This document shows, piece by piece, positions 1,975 to 61,678 of a DNA stretch of 64,000 nt. Source of the DNA: Okamejei kenojei (lineage: Eukaryota); NCBI GenBank assembly GCA_035221665.1, contig CM069156.1, positions 30,070,001-30,134,000 on the forward strand, written 5' to 3'. The position numbers were made by a program, and so were the translations under genes. Numbering within the stretch: the first letter of the stretch is position 1; each line of letters begins with the position of its first letter. The notes beneath the pieces are model-generated. The model searched no databases. It was given only the letters and a program-made list of their open reading frames with translations, and had not been told where the DNA came from.

Positions 1975-2202
1975 GTGTAGGAAGGAACTGCAGATGCTGG
2001 TTTAAACCGAAGATAGGCACATAAAGCTGGAGTAACTCAGTGGGACAGGCAGCATCTCTGGAGAGAAGGAATGGGTGACAATTCGGGACGAGACCCTTCT
2101 TCACAGTCTAAAGAAGGGTCTCGACCCTAACCGTCACCTATTCGTTTTCTCCAGAGATGCTGCCTGTCCCACTGAGTTACTCCAGCTTTTTGTGTCTATC
2201 TT
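1975..2202. mobile_element. Palindromic Penelope-like pLTR insertion with degenerate hammerhead cores
   Basis: Inverted arms 2010-2103 / ~2106-2202; TSD TAATTTAACTTAAT at 1961-1974 and 2203-2216; 35-nt unpaired tail 1975-2009. Confidence 0.8.
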
Positions 2203-3515: not shown

Positions 3516-3892
3516 TAAAATTTGATGTTGGATCACAGGTGGAGGTGACTAAAAAGTGTGGTGAAGGTGGGCTTTAAGGACTGCTGTAAAGGAGGAGAGG
3601 AAGACATGCCAATGGGTTTAGGAAGGGAATTCCAGGCGGTATGAGGACCTGCCATCGGAAAGGCATGTCTGGCATCTGTTTACGCAATGGTAATTGGGGA
3701 TCCTGAAAGAGGTCAGAATGGGAAATGATTTGACACGGATGAAAGCTGTGGAACTGGAGATTGCAGATTCACACCTCCAGATGCAGGGGCAGCTTCTTCC
3801 CAGCTGTTATCCGGCAACTGAACCATCCTACCACAAGTAGAAAGCAGTCCATGATTACTATCTACTTCATTGGGGACCCCCCGAATATCTTT

Positions 3893-4076
3893 CAGAAAGA
3901 AGTGCAGGTGTTGGAAAAATCGAAGATAGACAAAAAAATGCTGGAGAAACTCAGCGAGTGAGGCAGCATCTATGGAGCGAAGGTCTGAAGAAGGGTCTCG
4001 ACCCGAAACGTCTCCTACTCCTTCGCTCCATAGATGCTGCCTCACCCGCTGAGTTTCTCCAGCATTTGTGTCCACG
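3893..4076. mobile_element. Palindromic Penelope-like pLTR insertion
   Basis: Arms GCTGGAGAAACTCAGCG..CATCTATGGAGCGAAGG / CCTTCGCTCCATAGATG..CGCTGAGTTTCTCCAGC; imperfect duplication CGAATATCTTT / CGGATTATCTTT. Confidence 0.75.
3985..4012 (+). ncRNA. Minimal type I hammerhead ribozyme core
   Basis: CTGAAGA-A-GGGTC-TC-GACCC-GAAAC-GTC: both conserved boxes, stem II and GUC cleavage triplet intact. Confidence 0.7.
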
Positions 4077-4816: not shown

Positions 4817-5376
4817 TAGACAATAGACAATAGGTGCAGGAGTAGGCCATTCGGCCCTTCGATCCAGCTCCGCCATTCAATGTGATCATGGTGATCATTC
4901 CCAATCAGTACCCCGTTCCTGCCTTCTCCCCATATCCCCTGACTCCACTATTTTTAAGAGCCATATCTAGCTCTCCCTAGAAAGCATCCAGAGAACCTGC
5001 CTCCACCGCCCTCTGAGGCCGCGAATTCCACAGCCTCACCACCCTCTGTGAGAAAAAGTGTTTCCTCGTCTCCATTCTAAATGGCTGACTCCTTATTCTT
5101 AAACTGTGGCCCCTGGTTCTGGACTCCCCCAACATTGGGAACATGTTTCCTGCCTCTAGCGTGTCCAAACCCTTAACAATCTTATATGTTTCAATGAGAT
5201 ATCCTCTCATCCTTCTAAACTCCAGAGTGTATAAGCCCAGCTGCTCCATTCTCTCAGCATATGACAGTCCCGCCATCCCGGGAATTAACCTTGTAAATCT
5301 ACGCTGCACTACCTCAATAGCAAGAATGTCCTTCCTCAAATTAGGGGACCAAAACTGCACACAATACTCTAGGTGT
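4817..5376 (-). mobile_element. 5'-truncated CR1 LINE with (CTATTGT)n tail
   Basis: ORF 4977..5561 HLEYCVQFWSP..KDILAIE.VQRRFTRLIPG..FFSQRVVRLWNS; TSD GAGTCAT at 4810-4816 and 5377-5383. Confidence 0.92.
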
Positions 5377-15544: not shown

Positions 15545-15730
15545 TGTGTAGGAAGGCACTGGAGATGCTGGTTCACACCGAAGATAGACACAAAATTCTG
15601 GAGTAACTCAGCGGGGCAGGCAGCATCTCTGGAGAGATGGAATGGGTGATGTTTCGGGTCGAGACCGTCCTTCAGACCCTCCAAAGATGCTATCCGTCCG
15701 GCTGAGTTACTCCAGCATTTTGTGTCTCTC
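15545..15730. mobile_element. PLE pLTR insertion with short inverted arm
   Basis: GTAGGAAGG..AGATGCTGG tail, antisense core GATGTTTCGGGTCGAGACC.TC.TTCAG, reverse arm GCTGAGTTACTCCAGCATTTTGTGTCT. Confidence 0.7.
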
Positions 15731-16219
15731 TACGACCTTCTTGCTGGGCTTGGTGGCTCCACCCAGTGGGAAGTCAATGTAAGACCTCTCTGCGGGCTGT
15801 GGTCTGCAGAATCCAGAGACCATCAGCAGGCTGGGCTATGGAATAAATCTGACCAACACATCAGCAACTGGCTACTTACTGTTAATCACAAACCCTACTG
15901 TATTCCCAGAACACATGCAACTGCGGTGTGCTTTCATCACTGAGAAAGCAACCACAAAATTCTCATCGAAAAACAAAAAGCGTCGGAGGAACTTAGTGGG
16001 TCACGCATCATTTGTGGTGGGAATGGACAGACGATATTTCATCAGTCTGAAGAAAGGTCCATACCCAGAACGTCGCCTGTCCATTTTCCTGCACATTTGC
16101 CGCCTGAGCTGCTGAGTTCCTCCAGCATTTTGTATTTCAGTATCTGCCGTTTCTTGTGTGCCTCCATAAAATTCATATCCTTGCTTGCCTTTCCTATCTG
16201 GGAACCCCTCCTGTAGCTA

Positions 16220-22613: not shown

Positions 22614-24350
22614 GCATAGAACATAGAGCAGTACAGCACAGGAACAGGCCCTTCAGCCCACAATGTCCGTGCCAAACATGATGCCAAGTTAAACTTATCT
22701 CATCTGCCTGTACATGATCCATTCCCTACATATCCAAGTGCCTATCTAAAATGCCTCTTCAACACTACTGTCATATCTGCTGCCACCACCATCCCCGGCA
22801 TCGTGTTCCACGTACCCATCACTCTCTGTATAAAATCATGTCCCCCCCCCCCTTACATCTCCTTCAAACCTTGCCCCTCTCATCTTGAAGCTATGCCCTC
22901 TACTCTTTAATATTTCCATGCTGGGTAAAAGATTTCTAACTGTCTTTATATATTCAAAAATTCTGAGTATATAAAAGCTCATTATTGTATATACTTCTAT
23001 TAGGTCTCTCCTCAACCTCCAATATTCTACAGAAAACAATCCAGGCTTGTCCAATCTCTCTTAGAAACATAGAAAATAGGTGCAGGAGTAGGCCATTCGG
23101 CCCTTTGAGCCTGCACCTCCATTCAATATGATCATGGCTGATCATCCAACTCAGTATGCTGTACCTGCCTTCTCTCCATACCCCCTGATCCCTTTGGCCA
23201 CAAGGGCCACATCTAACTCCCTCTTAAATATAGCCAATGAACTGGCCTCAGCTACCTTCTGTGGCAGATAATTCCAGAGACTCACCACTCTCTGTGTGAA
23301 AAATGTTTGCCCCTTATCCTTAGACTGTGACCCCTTGTTCTGGATTTCCCCAACATCGGGAACAATCTTCCTGCATCTAGCCTATCCAACCCCTTAAGAA
23401 TTTTGTAAGTTTCTATAAGATCCCCCCTCAGTCTTCTAAATTCTAGCGAGTACAAGCCAAGTCTATACAGTCTTTCCTCATATGAAAGTCCTGACATCCC
23501 AGGAATCAGTCTGGTGAACCTTCTCTGTACCCTTCTATGGCAAGAATGTCTTTTCTCAGATTTGGAGACCAAAACTGTACGCAATACTCCTGGTGTGGTC
23601 TCACCAAAACCCTGTACAACTGCAGTAGAACCTCCCTGCTCCTATACTCAAATCCTTTCGCTATGAATGCTAACATACCATTTGCTTTCTTCACTGCCTG
23701 CTGCACCTGCATGCCTACTTTCAATGATTGGTATACCATGACACCCAGGTCTCGTTGCATCTCCCCTTTTCCTAATTTGCCACCATTAAGGTAATAGTCT
23801 ACACTCCTGTTTTTGCCACCAAAGTGGATAACCTCACATTTATCCACAATATACTGCATCTGCCATGCATTTGCCCACTCACCCAACCTATCCAAGTCAC
23901 CTTGCAGCCTCCTAGCATCCTCCTCACACCTAACACTACCCCCCAGCTTAGTGTCATTCGCAAACTTGGAGATGTTGCATTCAATTCCCTCGTCCAAATC
24001 ATTAAAATATATTGTAAATAGCTGGAGTCCCAGCACTGAGCCTTGCGGTACCCTACTAGTCACTGCCTGCCATTCTGAAAAGGACCCGTTTACTCCTACC
24101 ATTTGCTTCCTGTCTGCCAGCCAGTTCTCTATCCACATCAATACTGAACCCCCAATACCGTGTGCTTTAAGTTTGTATCTTTGTAGCTAATGTCCTCTAA
24201 TCCAGGCAGCATTTTGTTAAACTTCTCCTGCACCCTCTCCAAAGCCTCTACATTCCTCCTGTATTCAGGAGATGAGAACTGCACACAATACTCCAAATGC
24301 GGCCAAACCGTAGAGCTGCATCCTGACTTCCTGACTCTTACACTCAACGA
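22614..24350 (-). mobile_element. CR1/HER1-type LINE 3' part, split by a younger CR1
   Basis: Segments 22614-23060 and ~24180-24350 are collinear with the family consensus (..GTCCAA.CTCTC|.TGTAGCTAAT.TCCTCTAATCC..); ORF 24138..24347 PHLEYCVQF..LERVQ. Confidence 0.8.
23061..24175 (-). pseudogene. CR1 LINE ORF2 RT fragment (frameshifted) with 3' tail
   Basis: WIENWLADRKQ..VPQGSVLG..FTIY.NDL..SKFANDTKL (FADD altered)..KCEVIHFG..RDLGV..EYCVQFWSP. Confidence 0.93.
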
Positions 24351-30364: not shown

Positions 30365-31950
30365 CAGAGTTTGTATGTTCTTGCTGTGACCGCGTGGGTT
30401 TTCTCCATATGCACCGGTTTCCACACACACTCCAAAGACATAAATTGTCCCAAGTGTGTAGGATAGTAGATAGACGGGGTGATCACTGGACGGCCTGGAC
30501 ATGGTGGGCCGAAGGGCCTGTTTCTGCGTAGTATCTCCAAAATAAAGTCGAAAGAAATTTAATTTAATTTTTTGTTTTAGTGATACAGCATGAGCACAGA
30601 ATCATCCTGTGCACACCAACCATCGATCACCCGTTCACATTAGTTCTCTGTTTTCCCACTCCCACATTCACTTCCTCCACACTAGGAGGCAATTTTACAA
30701 GTAGGCAGACAAAAGTGCTGGAGAAACTCAGCGGGTGCAGCAGCATCTATGGAGCAAAGGAAACAGGCAATGTTTCGGGCCGAAACCCTTCTTCAGACTG
30801 GTCTGAAGGAGGGTTTTGGCCCAAAACGTTGTCTATTTCCTTCGCTCCATAAATGCTGCTGCACCCGCTGAGTTTCTCCAGCACTTTTGTCTGCCTTCGA
30901 TTTTCCTGCATCTGCAGTTCCTTCTTAAGCAATTTTACAAGTGCCAATTAACTTACAAGCTTACACCTTTTTGGGATGTGGGAGGAAACCGGAGCACCCG
31001 AAGGAAACCTATGCGGTCACAGGGAGAACGTGCAAACTCCGCTGCGTCAGTGCCAGAGGCCGAGGTTTGGGCCTGATCACTGGTGCCATCAGGGTGGATT
31101 TTGCACGTTCTCTCTATGACCACATGGATTTCCTCCAGGTACTCTGGTTTCCGTCCACATCCCAAAGACATGTGGGTTTATAGGTTAAATGGCCTCTGTA
31201 AATTGTCCCTAGCGTATAGGTGACCGGTAGAATTTTGGGTGAATTGAAACAATTTGAAGAGATTAAAATTGGATTAGATTACTGTCAGATTAGTTAGTGT
31301 AAGTGGGTGGTTCATGGTCAGAGTGGCCCAAGGAGCCTTTTTCAATTCTGTATCTATCTTTTATATTCATATGAATATAATTTTTACACATCTAACTTGG
31401 GCGGCAATACGAGCTAGTGGAGCTGCTGCCTCACAGTGCTAGAGAACCGGGTTCAATCCTGACCTCTGGTCTGGTGTTCTCCCTGTGACCATGTGGCTTT
31501 CCTCTGGCTGGTCTGCTTTCTCCCACAAGAAGTGTGGGTTTGTAGATTAATTGGTCTTTATAAAGAATTGCCCCAAATGTTTTGGTGTGGATGAGAAAGT
31601 GGGATAGCATATAACAAGTGAGAATGGGTTTAGTTTAGTTTAGTTTAGTTTAGAGATACAGCGCGGAAACAGGCCCTTTCGGCCTACTGGGTCCGCGCCG
31701 ACCAGCGATCCCCGCACATTAACACTATCCTGTACCCACTAGAGACAATTTTTACATTTACCAAGCCAATTAACAAACCTACATATTCTGAACGTCTTTG
31801 GAATGTGGGAGGAAACCGAAGATCTCGGGGAAAACCCACACGGTCACGGGGAGAACGTACAGACAGCAGCAGTAGTCAGGATCAAACCCGGGTCCCTGGC
31901 GCTGCGTTCGCTGTAAGTCAGCAACACTACCGCTGCGCCACCGGGCCGCC
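30365..31950. mobile_element. Cluster of at least five HE1-type SINE pieces in both orientations
   Basis: V-domain/tail motifs at ~30365-30540(+), 30575-31075(-), 31080-31350(+), 31398-31628(+), 31628-31950(-). Confidence 0.8.
30703..30928. mobile_element. Palindromic PLE pLTR insertion inside a SINE
   Basis: TSD GCAATTTTACAAGT at 30689-30702 and 30929-30942; arms 30703-30808 / ~30811-30896; 32-nt tail 30897-30928. Confidence 0.88.
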
Positions 31951-35813: not shown

Positions 35814-36023
35814 GTGTAGGAAGGAACTGCAGAGATGCTGGTTTAAACCGAAGATAGACAGAAAAAGCTGGAGTACCTCAGCGGGATAGGCAGCATCTCT
35901 GGTGAGAAGGAATGGGTGATGTTTCGGGTCGCGACTGAAGAAGGGTCTCGACCCGAAACGTCACCCATTCCTTCTCTTCACAGATGCTACCTGTCCCGTT
36001 GAGTTACTCCAGCTTTTTGTGTT
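35814..36023. mobile_element. Palindromic PLE pLTR insertion with intact hammerhead core at 35935-35962
   Basis: TSD TATTATA(G/A)TACCCTT at 35799-35813 and 36024-36038; CTGAAGAAGGGTCTCGACCCGAAACGTCACC. Confidence 0.85.
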
Positions 36024-40829: not shown

Positions 40830-42590
40830 TGCTGAAAGGAAACATGATAGTAGTATATAAAATTACGAGAGGCATAGATAGGGTTGAGAATCAGAACTTT
40901 TACCCAAGGGTGGGAATGTCAAAGACAAGAGAGCATAAGGTGAGAGGGTCAAAGTTTAAGGTGGAAGTGCAGGGCAAGTCTTTTTACATTGAGGATGGTG
41001 GGTGCCTGGAATTCATTGCCAAGAGAGGTTTAGTTTAGTTGTGTTTAGAGATACATAGAAACATAGAAATTAGGTGCAGGAGTAGGCCATTCAGCCCTTC
41101 GAGCCTGCACCGCCATTCAATATGATCATGGCTGATCATCCAACTCAGTATCCCGTACCTGCCTTCTCTCCATACCCTCTGATCCCCTTAGCCACAAGGG
41201 CCCATCATCCAACTCACTCTTAAATATAGCCAATGAACTGGCCTCAACTACCCTCTGTGGCAGAGAGTTCCAGAGACTCATCACTCTCTGTGTGAAAAAA
41301 GTCTTTCTCATCTTTTAAAGGATTTAAAGGATTTCCCCCTTATCCTTAAGCTGTGACCCTTGTCCTGGACTTCCCCAACATCAGGAACAATCTTCCTGCA
41401 TCTAGCCTGTCCAACCCCTTAAGAATTTTGTAAGTTTTCTATAAGATCCCCTCTCAATCTCCTAAATTCCAGAGAGTATAAACCGAGTCTATCCAGTCTT
41501 TCTTCATAAGACAGTCCTGACATCCCAGGAATCAGTCTGGTGAACCTTCTCTGCACTCCCTCTATGGCAATAATGTCCTTCCTCAGATTTGGAGACCAAA
41601 AACTGTACGCAATACTCCAGGTGTGGTCTCACCAAGACCCCTGTACAACTGAAGTAGAACCTCCCTGCTCCTGTACTCAAATCCTTTTGCTATGAAAGCT
41701 AACATACCATTCGCTTTTTTCACTGCCTGCTGCACCTGCATGCCTACTTTCAATGACTGGTGTACCATGACACCCAGGTCTCGCTGCATCTCCCCTTTTC
41801 CTAATCGGCCACCATTTAAATAATAGTCTGCTTTCCTGTTTTTGCCACCAAAGTGGATAACCTCACATTTATCCACATTATACTGCATCTGCCAAACATT
41901 TGCCCACTCACCCAGCCTATCCAAGTCACCTTGCAGTCTCCTAGCATCCTCCTCACAGCGAACACTGCCCCCCAGCTTAGTGTCATCCGCAAACTTGGAG
42001 ATATTGCCTTCAATTCCCTCATCCAGATCATTAATATATATTGTAAATATATTGTAAATAGCTGGGGTCCCAACACTGAGCCCTGCGGTACCCCACTAGT
42101 CACTGCCTGCCATTGTGAAAAGATACTGCGTGTAGCAGGCCCATCTGCCCACTGAGCCCACGCCGGCCAGCGATCCCCGCACACTTACACTGTCCCGCAC
42201 ACACTAGCGACAATTTGCAATTATACCAAGCCAATTAACCTACACACCTGTACGGCTTTGGAGTGTTGGAAGAAACCAGAGCTCCCGGAGAAAACCCACG
42301 CAGGTCGCGGGGAGAACGTACAAACTCCATACAGACAGCACCCGTAGTCAGGATCAAACCCGAGGCCCTGGCGCTCTAAGGCTACAGCTCTACCGCTGCA
42401 CCACCGTGCCACAAATGATGGAAGCAGATAATGACAGTGGCTTTTGAGAGGCTTTTAGATGCATGTGGATGTGTAGGGAACTGAGTGATATGGATCCCGG
42501 GCAGGCAGAGATTAGTTAAACCTGACATCGTGTTGAGCACAGACGTTGTGGACTGAAGGGCCTGTTCCTGTGCTGGACTCTTCTATGTTA
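40830..42590. mobile_element. Nest: HER1-type LINE (+) containing an HE1 SINE (-, ~41029-42410), which contains a CR1 (-)
   Basis: Each host resumes collinearly after its insert. Confidence 0.85.
41055..42120 (-). pseudogene. CR1 LINE ORF2 RT fragment (frameshifted) with 3' tail
   Basis: VTSGVPQGSVLGPQLFTIY, GCGGATGACACTAAG (ADDTK), KCEVIHFG, RDLGV; TSD AGATAC at 41049-41054 and 42121-42126; very similar to 23061-24175. Confidence 0.93.
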
Positions 42591-52050: not shown

Positions 52051-52195
52051 TTTATGCTTTATAATGGGAAGGAACACACAATTATCATTCAGGTTAATAA
52101 AGAAGGAACTGCAGATGCTGGAGAATCGAAGGGTACACAAAAAGCTGGAGAAAACTCAGCGGTGCAGCAGCATCTAAGGAGCGAAGGAGATAGGC

Positions 52196-52223
52196 GACGT
52201 TTCGGGTCGAGACCCTTCTTCAG
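52196..52223 (-). ncRNA. Minimal hammerhead ribozyme core (minus strand)
   Basis: Reverse complement is CTGAAGAAGGGTCTCGACCCGAAACGTC. Confidence 0.7.
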
Positions 52224-52390
52224 ACTGGTCAGGGATCAGGGAAACGAGAGATATAAGATGGTGATGTGGAGAGATAAGGAACAATGAGTGAAAGATATGC
52301 AAAAAGTATTTTTTGCATATCTTTCACTCATTGTTCCTTATCTCTCCACATCACCATCTATATCTCTCGTTTCCCTGATCCCTGACCAGT

Positions 52391-52418
52391 CTGAAGAAGG
52401 GTCTCGACCCGAAACGTC
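52391..52418 (+). ncRNA. Minimal hammerhead ribozyme core (plus strand)
   Basis: CTGAAGAAGGGTCTCGACCCGAAACGTC. Confidence 0.7.
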
Positions 52419-52714
52419 GCCTATCTCCTTCGCTCCTTAGATGCTGCTGCACCCGCTGAGTTTTCTCCAGCTTTTTGTGTACCCCTATCATTCAGGTTAA
52501 CTTGGCAGAAGATTTAAAACTGAGAGAAACATTGCAAACAAATGGTGTGGCAAATGAGGTAATTTGGAATGTGTTGCTTGAATGAGTTGTGGGAGCAGCT
52601 TCAATCTAAGTTTCCAAAGGGTACTGGTCAAATACTTGAAAAGTAAATATTTCCAGAACACGACATAAAGAGCAGGATCCAATTAGACTACTCTTTTGGG
52701 GAATTTTTATTCAG

Positions 52715-53172
52715 GTTAGCTGAAGTTAAGTTAGAGATACAATGTGGAAACAGGCTCTTCAGTCCACCAAGAGCATGCCGTCTATTGATCACCCGTTAAT
52801 CACCTGTTGATCATACATTAATTCTATGAGTAGGAAAGAACTGCAGATGCTGGTTTAAATCGAAGGCAGACACAAAATGCCGGTGTAACTCAGCGGGACA
52901 GGCAGCATCTCTGGAGAGAAGTTTCGGGTTGAGACCCTTCTTCAGACTGTTAATTCTATGTCCTATACAGAAGGGACAATTTACAGAAGCCAATTAACCT
53001 GCAAACCTGTGTGGGCTACGAATGTGGGAGGAAACCAGAGCACCCGGAGAAAGCCCACGCGATCACAGGGAGAATGTACAAACTCCACGCAGACAGCGCC
53101 CGTAGTCAGGATCGAACCCGGGACTCTGGCGCTGTGAGGCAGCAACCCTACCGCTGCGCCACCGTGCCGCCC
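52715..53172 (-). mobile_element. HE1-type SINE with a single-arm PLE insertion at 52829-52949
   Basis: TSD TTAATTCTATG at 52818-52828 and 52950-52960. Confidence 0.85.
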
Positions 53173-61338: not shown

Positions 61339-61678
61339 AATAGTAAGATTAAATGAGAACTTACCAGTTTGAAGTTTGATCTTTATTTTATGAGGAGTTA
61401 CGATGAGGGATTACGTGAAGACCCCGCCTGCACGCATGCGCGACATTCTTCAAAGCAGTGGTGTGAAATCACAGATACCAGAATGACTAATATACTAATA
61501 TAGTAAGATAAGAGAGAACTTACATACCAGTTGAACTTTATAATAGAGGGTTTTGGGAGCTGAGGGCACGTAATCCCTCACAGTAACTCCTCATAAAATA
61601 AAGATCAAACTTCAAACTGGTAAGTTCTCATTTAATCTTACTATTTGACTTTGGAGTCACATGAGTGACTACGTGAAG
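61339..61678 (-). repeat. DIRS right terminal repeat and internal complementary region (ICR)
   Basis: 61339-61417 is the reverse complement of 61567-61645 (77/79 match); 61646-61678 is the second ICR half. Confidence 0.88.

Follow-up and report, generated by a model that had tools for sequence, protein, structure and literature searches.

The insertion at 52083-52500 of the window, i.e. the whole 64-kb stretch of DNA analysed here, is a retrotransposed product of a Penelope-like retroelement (PLE). Its most probable origin, to which we give a probability of roughly 0.7, is that two 5′-truncated PLE ends were joined head to head by priming from both nicked strands of the target. We propose that the resulting hairpin is a by-product of integration; as a locus the insertion is ordinary and probably inert. 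The literature below is cited by accession or DOI, and statements on it refer to the accessible sections of each source.

The insertion spans about 390 bases (Table 1). In a repeat comparison within the window its palindrome covers 354 bp (52131-52484), and the two arms, 52131-52305 and 52310-52484, are inverted copies that differ by two single-base indels. The original prediction, made from the letters of the window, described a near-perfect palindrome with a hammerhead core on each strand, a perfect 15-bp TSD and a 33-nt tail on one arm only. All of these features are present, the core as an exact 28-mer on both strands. The tail (52129-52098) is 100% identical to unit positions 1-32 of the full-length element L082, where this sequence lies upstream of the ATG (unit positions are counted along L082 2746-6701). 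The head-to-head junction occurs a single time in the genome. One other junction was found in the genome search at the same element position, and it has a different spacer.

Table 1. Coordinates within the window of the parts of the focal insertion and of four further head-to-head loci
Feature	Position	Strand	Remarks
TSD, left copy, 15 bp	52083..52097	+	0 mismatches vs 52486-52500
Tail, 33 nt, left arm only	52098..52130	-	Equals the sequence after the pLTR end in L082
Left arm, tailed, 5′-truncated pLTR of a young, presumably Neptune-type PLE	52131..52309	-	97.3% to L082 unit 3777-3956
Hammerhead-like core, minimal type I, 28 nt (CUGAAGA, extra A, 4-bp stem II, GAAAC-GUC)	52196..52223	-	Exact match
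Head-to-head junction, 4-nt spacer continuing the left arm	52306..52309		Microhomology at most ~1 nt
Right arm, tailless, 5′-truncated pLTR	52309..52484	+	98.9% to L082 unit 3781-3955
TATAT word, 29 nt upstream of initiator-like CCAGTCT (A at 52388)	52359..52392	+	Putative transcription start
Hammerhead-like core, 28 nt	52391..52418	+	Exact match; predicted cut after 52418
TSD, right copy	52486..52500	+	One extra C (52485) before the copy
Further locus	1975-2202		TSD 1961-1974/2203-2216, 14 bp; substitutions in both cores
Further locus	30703-30928		TSD 30689-30702/30929-30942, 14 bp; substitutions in both cores
Further locus	35814-36023		TSD 35799-35813/36024-36038, 15 bp, 1 mismatch; left arm ends before or inside core
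Further locus	3893-4076		Left arm ends before or inside core

The parent element can be found in the same genome. A search of 2.76 Gb in 1,141 contigs returned 48,215 exact copies of the 28-nt core against none for the reversed control, so the abundance of this 28-mer is not due to chance. Coding frames for RT and GIY-YIG lie upstream of other core copies. Of the 45,923 first-look candidates from a protein search, 150 were scored. Twelve with long open frames were examined, and two of these 12 (L081 and L082) carry an ORF of 1185 aa between two pLTRs. In the L082 protein the matches to RVT_1 (669-839, E=5e-6) and GIY-YIG (1089-1122, E=0.004) are below the Pfam cut-off, and the domain order and the motifs YIDD and IYC..IYIGET are as expected. 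Aligning the arms to such a full-length RT and GIY-YIG element, the check that had been suggested, gives 97-99% identity to the pLTR of L082. Together with the element-derived tail, the long and variable TSDs and the one-off junction, this match bears out the earlier view of the hairpins as retrotransposed PLE products.

Further features of EN+ PLEs found here are an optional tail of 30-40 nt, inverted 5′-truncated copies and TSDs of variable length. The tandem pLTR arrangement of these elements is also present, as seen from the partial units upstream in L081 (495 nt), L082 (897 nt), L084 (801 nt) and L089 (47 nt). Three of these partial units extend past the putative start site described below, which would need read-through, a template jump or a circular template. 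We take the family to belong to Neptune rather than Nematis, on general knowledge of vertebrate PLEs. Ahead of GIY-YIG the full-length element has a C-x4-C-x2-C linker (CNRKKCNTC); a CX2-5CxxC linker between RT and EN is shared by the Neptune and Nematis clades (PMC8557442).

The expectation that the genome would hold very many hairpins of this kind was right: thousands are present, with at least 2,616 close head-to-head pairs. The proper annotation for such hairpins is PLE stub rather than MITE or miRNA gene, and the head-to-head pairs are a possible source of long dsRNA, if they are transcribed. Three other identities were considered and rejected. A MITE or DNA transposon would have a fixed, short TSD, whereas the TSDs here range from 11 to 21 nt, the arms are variable and the junction is unique. 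A non-LTR retrozyme would consist of head-to-tail units, whereas here two cores lie on opposite strands. As for a miRNA gene, the Rfam miRNA matches all fall below the gathering scores and reflect the hairpin only.

The evidence on mechanism comes from counts over the family. We sampled 217 loci plus the window, mostly from the first 37 Mb of one contig, and the tail was absent from every search pattern used for sampling. Chaining of young copies (at least 90% to L082) gave 205 insertions, or 181 after duplicates were removed, comprising 41 inverted, 123 one-armed, 7 mixed and 10 at locus edges. Exactly one tail is found in 40/41 of the young inverted insertions, and two tails are found in none. 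In the sole exception the script had merged two neighbours, a one-tailed palindrome and a one-armed copy. The tail is present on 39/123 one-armed copies; some copies counted as one-armed have an inverted partner that is old or very short and escaped the identity filter. If each arm acquired its tail independently, 43% of the inverted insertions would be expected to be one-tailed (P ~7e-14, or 2e-11 at p = 0.5). In a subset drawn from one end pattern 23/96 insertions are inverted, and 22 of these 23 have one tail, with the same exception. We also scored 35 head-to-head loci of mixed age by eye, 10 of them shared with the set of 41: 20 are one-tailed, two apparently two-tailed (L104 and, doubtfully, L108), one tailless (L115) and 12 unscoreable.

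The 3′ ends of the family fall into two classes, one near the pLTR end and one at +30 to +43. By automated calls, good to about ±2 nt, a TSD of 11-21 nt (median 15) flanks 39/41 inverted insertions, and 63/126 one-armed copies have a TSD of at least 11 nt (median 14). Arms range from about 40 nt to more than 2 kb in length and grade into the retroelement ORF. After setting aside 7 complex cases from the 39 inverted insertions with a TSD, arm lengths could be compared in 32 simple two-segment cases. The tailed arm is shorter than the other by at least 10 nt in 12; in 17 the two are within 9 nt of each other, and in 3 the tailed arm is the longer.

The two arms of an insertion also resemble each other in their variants. 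Across 37 arm pairs, common polymorphisms are found on both arms in 15 instances and on one arm in 11, against 2.0 and 18.8 for re-paired arms, and five rare variants are common to both arms (re-paired mean 0.34, maximum 3). An extra T shared by both focal arms is present in just 4/219 arms. The discordant common variants are distributed as four in three TSD-bearing pairs (L076, L148 and L169) and seven in L088, which has no TSD. Since shared variants are far above those of re-paired arms, both arms of a pair usually have a single source, but the sharing could also have arisen by gene conversion.

In our best explanation the endonuclease would nick the two target strands ~14-15 bp apart. Both cDNAs would be templated by the same RNA, or by RNA from the same source copy; synthesis from one 3′ end would start where the pLTR ends, and from the other where the tail ends, about 33 nt further 3′. 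Both cDNAs would stop early and then be joined, giving a palindrome with one tail, while loss of one cDNA would leave an ordinary one-armed copy, either tailed or tailless. The template would mostly be uncut RNA. Arms are most often about 95 or 130 nt long, and these probably arose where reverse transcription ran off the RNA 5′ end just upstream of the core. A comparable process is LINE-1 twin priming, in which synthesis of another cDNA from the same RNA starts at the second nick of the target and both cDNAs are then joined. There the second primer is internal and the 3′ end is not duplicated, whereas here both primers would be at fixed sites near one end, and both ends of the insertion are element 3′ ends. 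Priming from both nicks matches the in vitro reaction of an anole PLE protein, a predicted dimer that nicks and extends both strands, initiates at two sites, one on each side of the tail, and can do without hammerhead cleavage (PMC11167929).

Of the 126 one-armed copies, only L211 has a clear remnant of a lost second cDNA at its junction, and L161 has a possible one. In L211, near position 4937, the 5′ junction of a tailless one-armed insertion contains 14 nt of the tail end in inverted orientation, which is what an aborted second cDNA should leave.

A more general claim, which we hold at even odds, is that PLE integration is inherently two-ended, with each nick tied to one RNA start site so that one tailed and one tailless cDNA are made. 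If true, the mirrors are cases where both cDNAs survive and the one-armed copies cases where one was lost; a single mechanism would cover the tail, the inverted pLTR and the solo pLTRs of ~100 nt, and the hammerhead would have no role in cutting the template. The origin of the inverted pLTRs and tails of PLEs is stated as open in the accessible sections of three papers (PMC3846280, PMC8557442, PMC11167929). In a family this young and abundant the question becomes countable, and the one-tail rule is a sharp prediction for the existing in vitro PLE system. The open-access article texts searched state no one-tail rule or twin priming for PLEs, and no report of these elements in sharks or skates was found among them.

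The original prediction spoke of fold-back products. In the version considered here, one strand (cDNA or antisense RNA) would snap back and be copied, with the endonuclease then trimming one end so that a single arm keeps its tail. Parts of this idea have been published: self-priming on an antisense template was proposed for PLE inversions (PMC3846280), and the tail was ascribed to endonuclease resolution of an intermediate (PMC8557442). As a general mechanism it does not hold up well, given one tail in 40/41, a tailed arm that is often the shorter and arms that share source variants, although variants common to both arms are also in its favour. The same is true of the nearly symmetrical focal junction, of the 17/32 simple cases with arms within 9 nt and of the many closest head-to-head junctions that lie on a CAG-T-CTG near-palindrome. 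However, most equal-length cases are at the common 5′-end cluster described below, where two independent run-offs would match too. The focal arm ends are within 4 nt of each other and away from that cluster; such near-equal arms are also expected from fold-back, and the focal locus alone therefore cannot separate the readings. The tails are more telling. Plain fold-back of a cDNA should leave zero tails or two: with a tailless first strand there is no tail to copy, and with a tailed one both arms would have it. Trimming should fix the side of the tail, yet the tailed arm is shorter in 12 cases and longer in 3. On balance we consider fold-back unlikely.

A variant of both-nick priming uses two RNAs held by an asymmetric dimer, with one start site per subunit. 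This accounts for the one-tail rule equally well, and the few arm pairs that differ at common polymorphisms would suit it. That said, the agreement between arms (15 shared vs 2.0) would need a strong preference for transcripts of the same source, or later conversion, and we think this variant quite improbable. We give almost no credence to the idea that the palindrome itself is the mobile unit, MITE-like or retrozyme-like, and is copied whole. The same 1-nt spacer form does recur in about half of the first 50 closest junctions listed, but the focal junction is found once in the genome and the only similar one has a different spacer, while the wide ranges of arm and TSD length given above, with arms grading into the retroelement ORF, also speak against a unit of this kind.

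Priming from both nicks also needs a template, and the places where arms begin are informative here. In loci L128-L217, 57/117 arms have their start within unit 3854-3868. These starts lie at the core, which begins at 3863, or directly 5′ of it. The edge of this cluster carries CCAGTCT, which from the motif consensus we take to be initiator-like, with TATAT 29 nt upstream; a transcription start may thus lie near the cluster edge. On visual inspection, several older subfamilies lack the TATA-like word. If reverse transcription begins in the 5′ pLTR of an uncut RNA, it would run off the RNA 5′ end there, and this is how the cluster may be read. The focal arms have their 5′ ends near unit 3777 and 3781, beyond the cluster, so their template reached further upstream. 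A cap-derived extra G is not evident by eye at 5′ junctions. Loose ends at the 5′ edge of the core are present in public assembled contigs, where they are confounded by older subfamilies diverging at this point.

Probes of 23 nt give 47,914 genome copies just 3′ of the predicted cut site vs 19,695 just 5′ of the core. Extending the probe across the cut site lowers the count to 46,899, 45,551 and 41,751, i.e. by 1.06, 0.97 and 1.73% per base, and the genome-wide counts have no step at the GUC. At most about 3% of arms stop at this site. With no excess of arm starts there, uncut RNA is likely to be the template.

It is possible, though we doubt it, that the cluster marks a 3′ splice site (a pyrimidine tract followed by CAG) or a block to RT instead of a transcription start. 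The sequence upstream is pyrimidine-rich with AG directly before the core, and the intron of D. virilis Penelope ends at helix I (PMC4209133). Against this, the copies that start in the cluster have no recurrent upstream exon between TSD and element, GT..AG ends are seen in 0 of the 15 joints listed among 43 (four sets, contigs only), and the cluster ends spread over ~12 nt rather than falling on one base.

We are doubtful that the cores are working ribozymes. The core boxes CUGANGA, GAAA and UH, the G10.1-C11.1 pair and helix II are all present, and the extra A after A9 that had been pointed out is a known trait of PLE minimal hammerheads (PMC4209133). The stem II first drawn, with 5 bp and a 2-nt loop, is sterically unlikely, and 4 bp (GGGU/ACCC) with a 4-nt loop is the usual reading. 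Only 2 bp are possible in helix I (U-A or U-G, and G-C), against a norm of 4-5 bp for minimal type I. Helix II is 94.6% paired over 37 copies, and in these copies the covariation of helices I and II is not above shuffles. The suggested search with hammerhead models, made with Rfam 15, returned no hammerhead match at E<=5. MFE folding, a weak test here, does not recover the hammerhead fold in the monomer, the short RNA or a two-strand cofold.

The context of the cores adds to this doubt. Folding predicts a single hairpin of -355 kcal/mol for read-through RNA of the palindrome. Either strand has one sense core only and, as the antisense arm is transcribed first in both directions, that core would be buried in duplex, and no activity is predicted for it in RNA of this kind. 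Transcripts that begin at the internal initiators would be free of the hairpin, but each would have a single monomeric core. Our doubt therefore comes from the 2-bp helix I, the lone sense core, the complement that is made first and the lack of a cut-RNA footprint. For a published minimal PLE hammerhead one monomer was inactive and dimers were weak (PMC4209133), and the hammerhead of the anole PLE depended on the PLE protein (PMC11167929). Failure of monomers or dimers to cleave, which had been offered as evidence against a PLE origin, is for these reasons a poor test of that origin. A retrozyme-like tandem that could allow dimeric hammerheads is found at L205 4688-5320, where three tailed pLTR ends lie head to tail with 252-nt spacing.

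Another candidate structure is a pairing of the tail with the pLTR (AGAUGCUG with CAGCAUCU). In this stem 90.8% of cells are paired, and covariation gives it no support above shuffles, 67/500 of which reach the score. Both AGAUGCUG and CAGCAUCU are near-invariant across subfamilies (L082 2690-2780; window 52098-52190), and the two inferred RT start sites would flank one side of this conserved stem.

The architecture, the tail and the motif are already published. Like EN+ PLE insertions such as Pen2a_Av (PMC3846280; PMC8557442), the focal locus combines a head-to-head 5′-truncated inverted copy, a TSD and a tail at one end, and the pLTRs of these elements have TATA and initiator-like words, as does the focal pLTR. 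The differences are that both focal arms are short and without ORF, that the median TSD is 15 here vs 8-10 in rotifer PLEs in the accessible sections of the same papers, and that a copy number in the tens of thousands makes the tail pattern countable. The minimal type I hammerheads of PLEs (PMC4209133) share the core boxes, an unpaired base between 9 and 10.1, G10.1-C11.1 and a palindromic ACGU helix III without loop 3. Helix II has 4 bp here vs 7-8 bp in the Schistosoma families, and the 2-bp helix I is like that of the D. virilis variant; in Schistosoma, hammerhead pairs on opposite strands occur 100-700 bp apart (PMC4209133).

PAc, a Poseidon element of Anolis carolinensis, has two RT starts that bracket the tail, extension of both strands and an uncut template (PMC11167929), as we infer here. 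It belongs to a different clade and its ORF starts inside the hammerhead, whereas the ORF here starts ~35 nt after the tail; the accessible part of that paper does not link two-strand extension to inverted insertions and gives no one-tail rule. Non-LTR retrozymes, described in a preprint in which one chondrichthyan was sampled (10.64898/2026.07.22.740005), are likewise small, hammerhead-bearing, non-coding derivatives of PLE pLTRs. Their units form head-to-tail tandems that make dimeric ribozymes possible, which a head-to-head pair like the focal one cannot.

The layout of the focal insertion was said to recur at four other loci in the window (Table 1). The one-sided tail is indeed found at all four, but two intact cores at none. 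TSDs flank three of them (14, 14 and 15 bp), and the scan detected no TSD of at least 9 nt at 3893-4076. A sixth one-tailed head-to-head insertion, from an older subfamily, lies at 15545-15734 with a 14-bp TSD (1 mismatch). An older one-armed tailed copy at 52830-52950 has its 5′ end just upstream of the core, an apparent TSD of 11 nt and an internal deletion. Two further inverted structures are of different origin: a near-perfect palindrome at 313-548 (88-nt arms, 99%) is unrelated to the Penelope family and looks like a DNA-transposon MITE, and an inverted repeat at 61339-61645 (79-nt arms, 97%, around 149 nt) is a different element. In a domain search of the 89 window ORFs of at least 95 aa, which short exons would escape, the only matches are three RVT_1 fragments. 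RVT_1 fragments at 23509-24186 (-) and 41586-42184 (-) are probably decayed LINEs.
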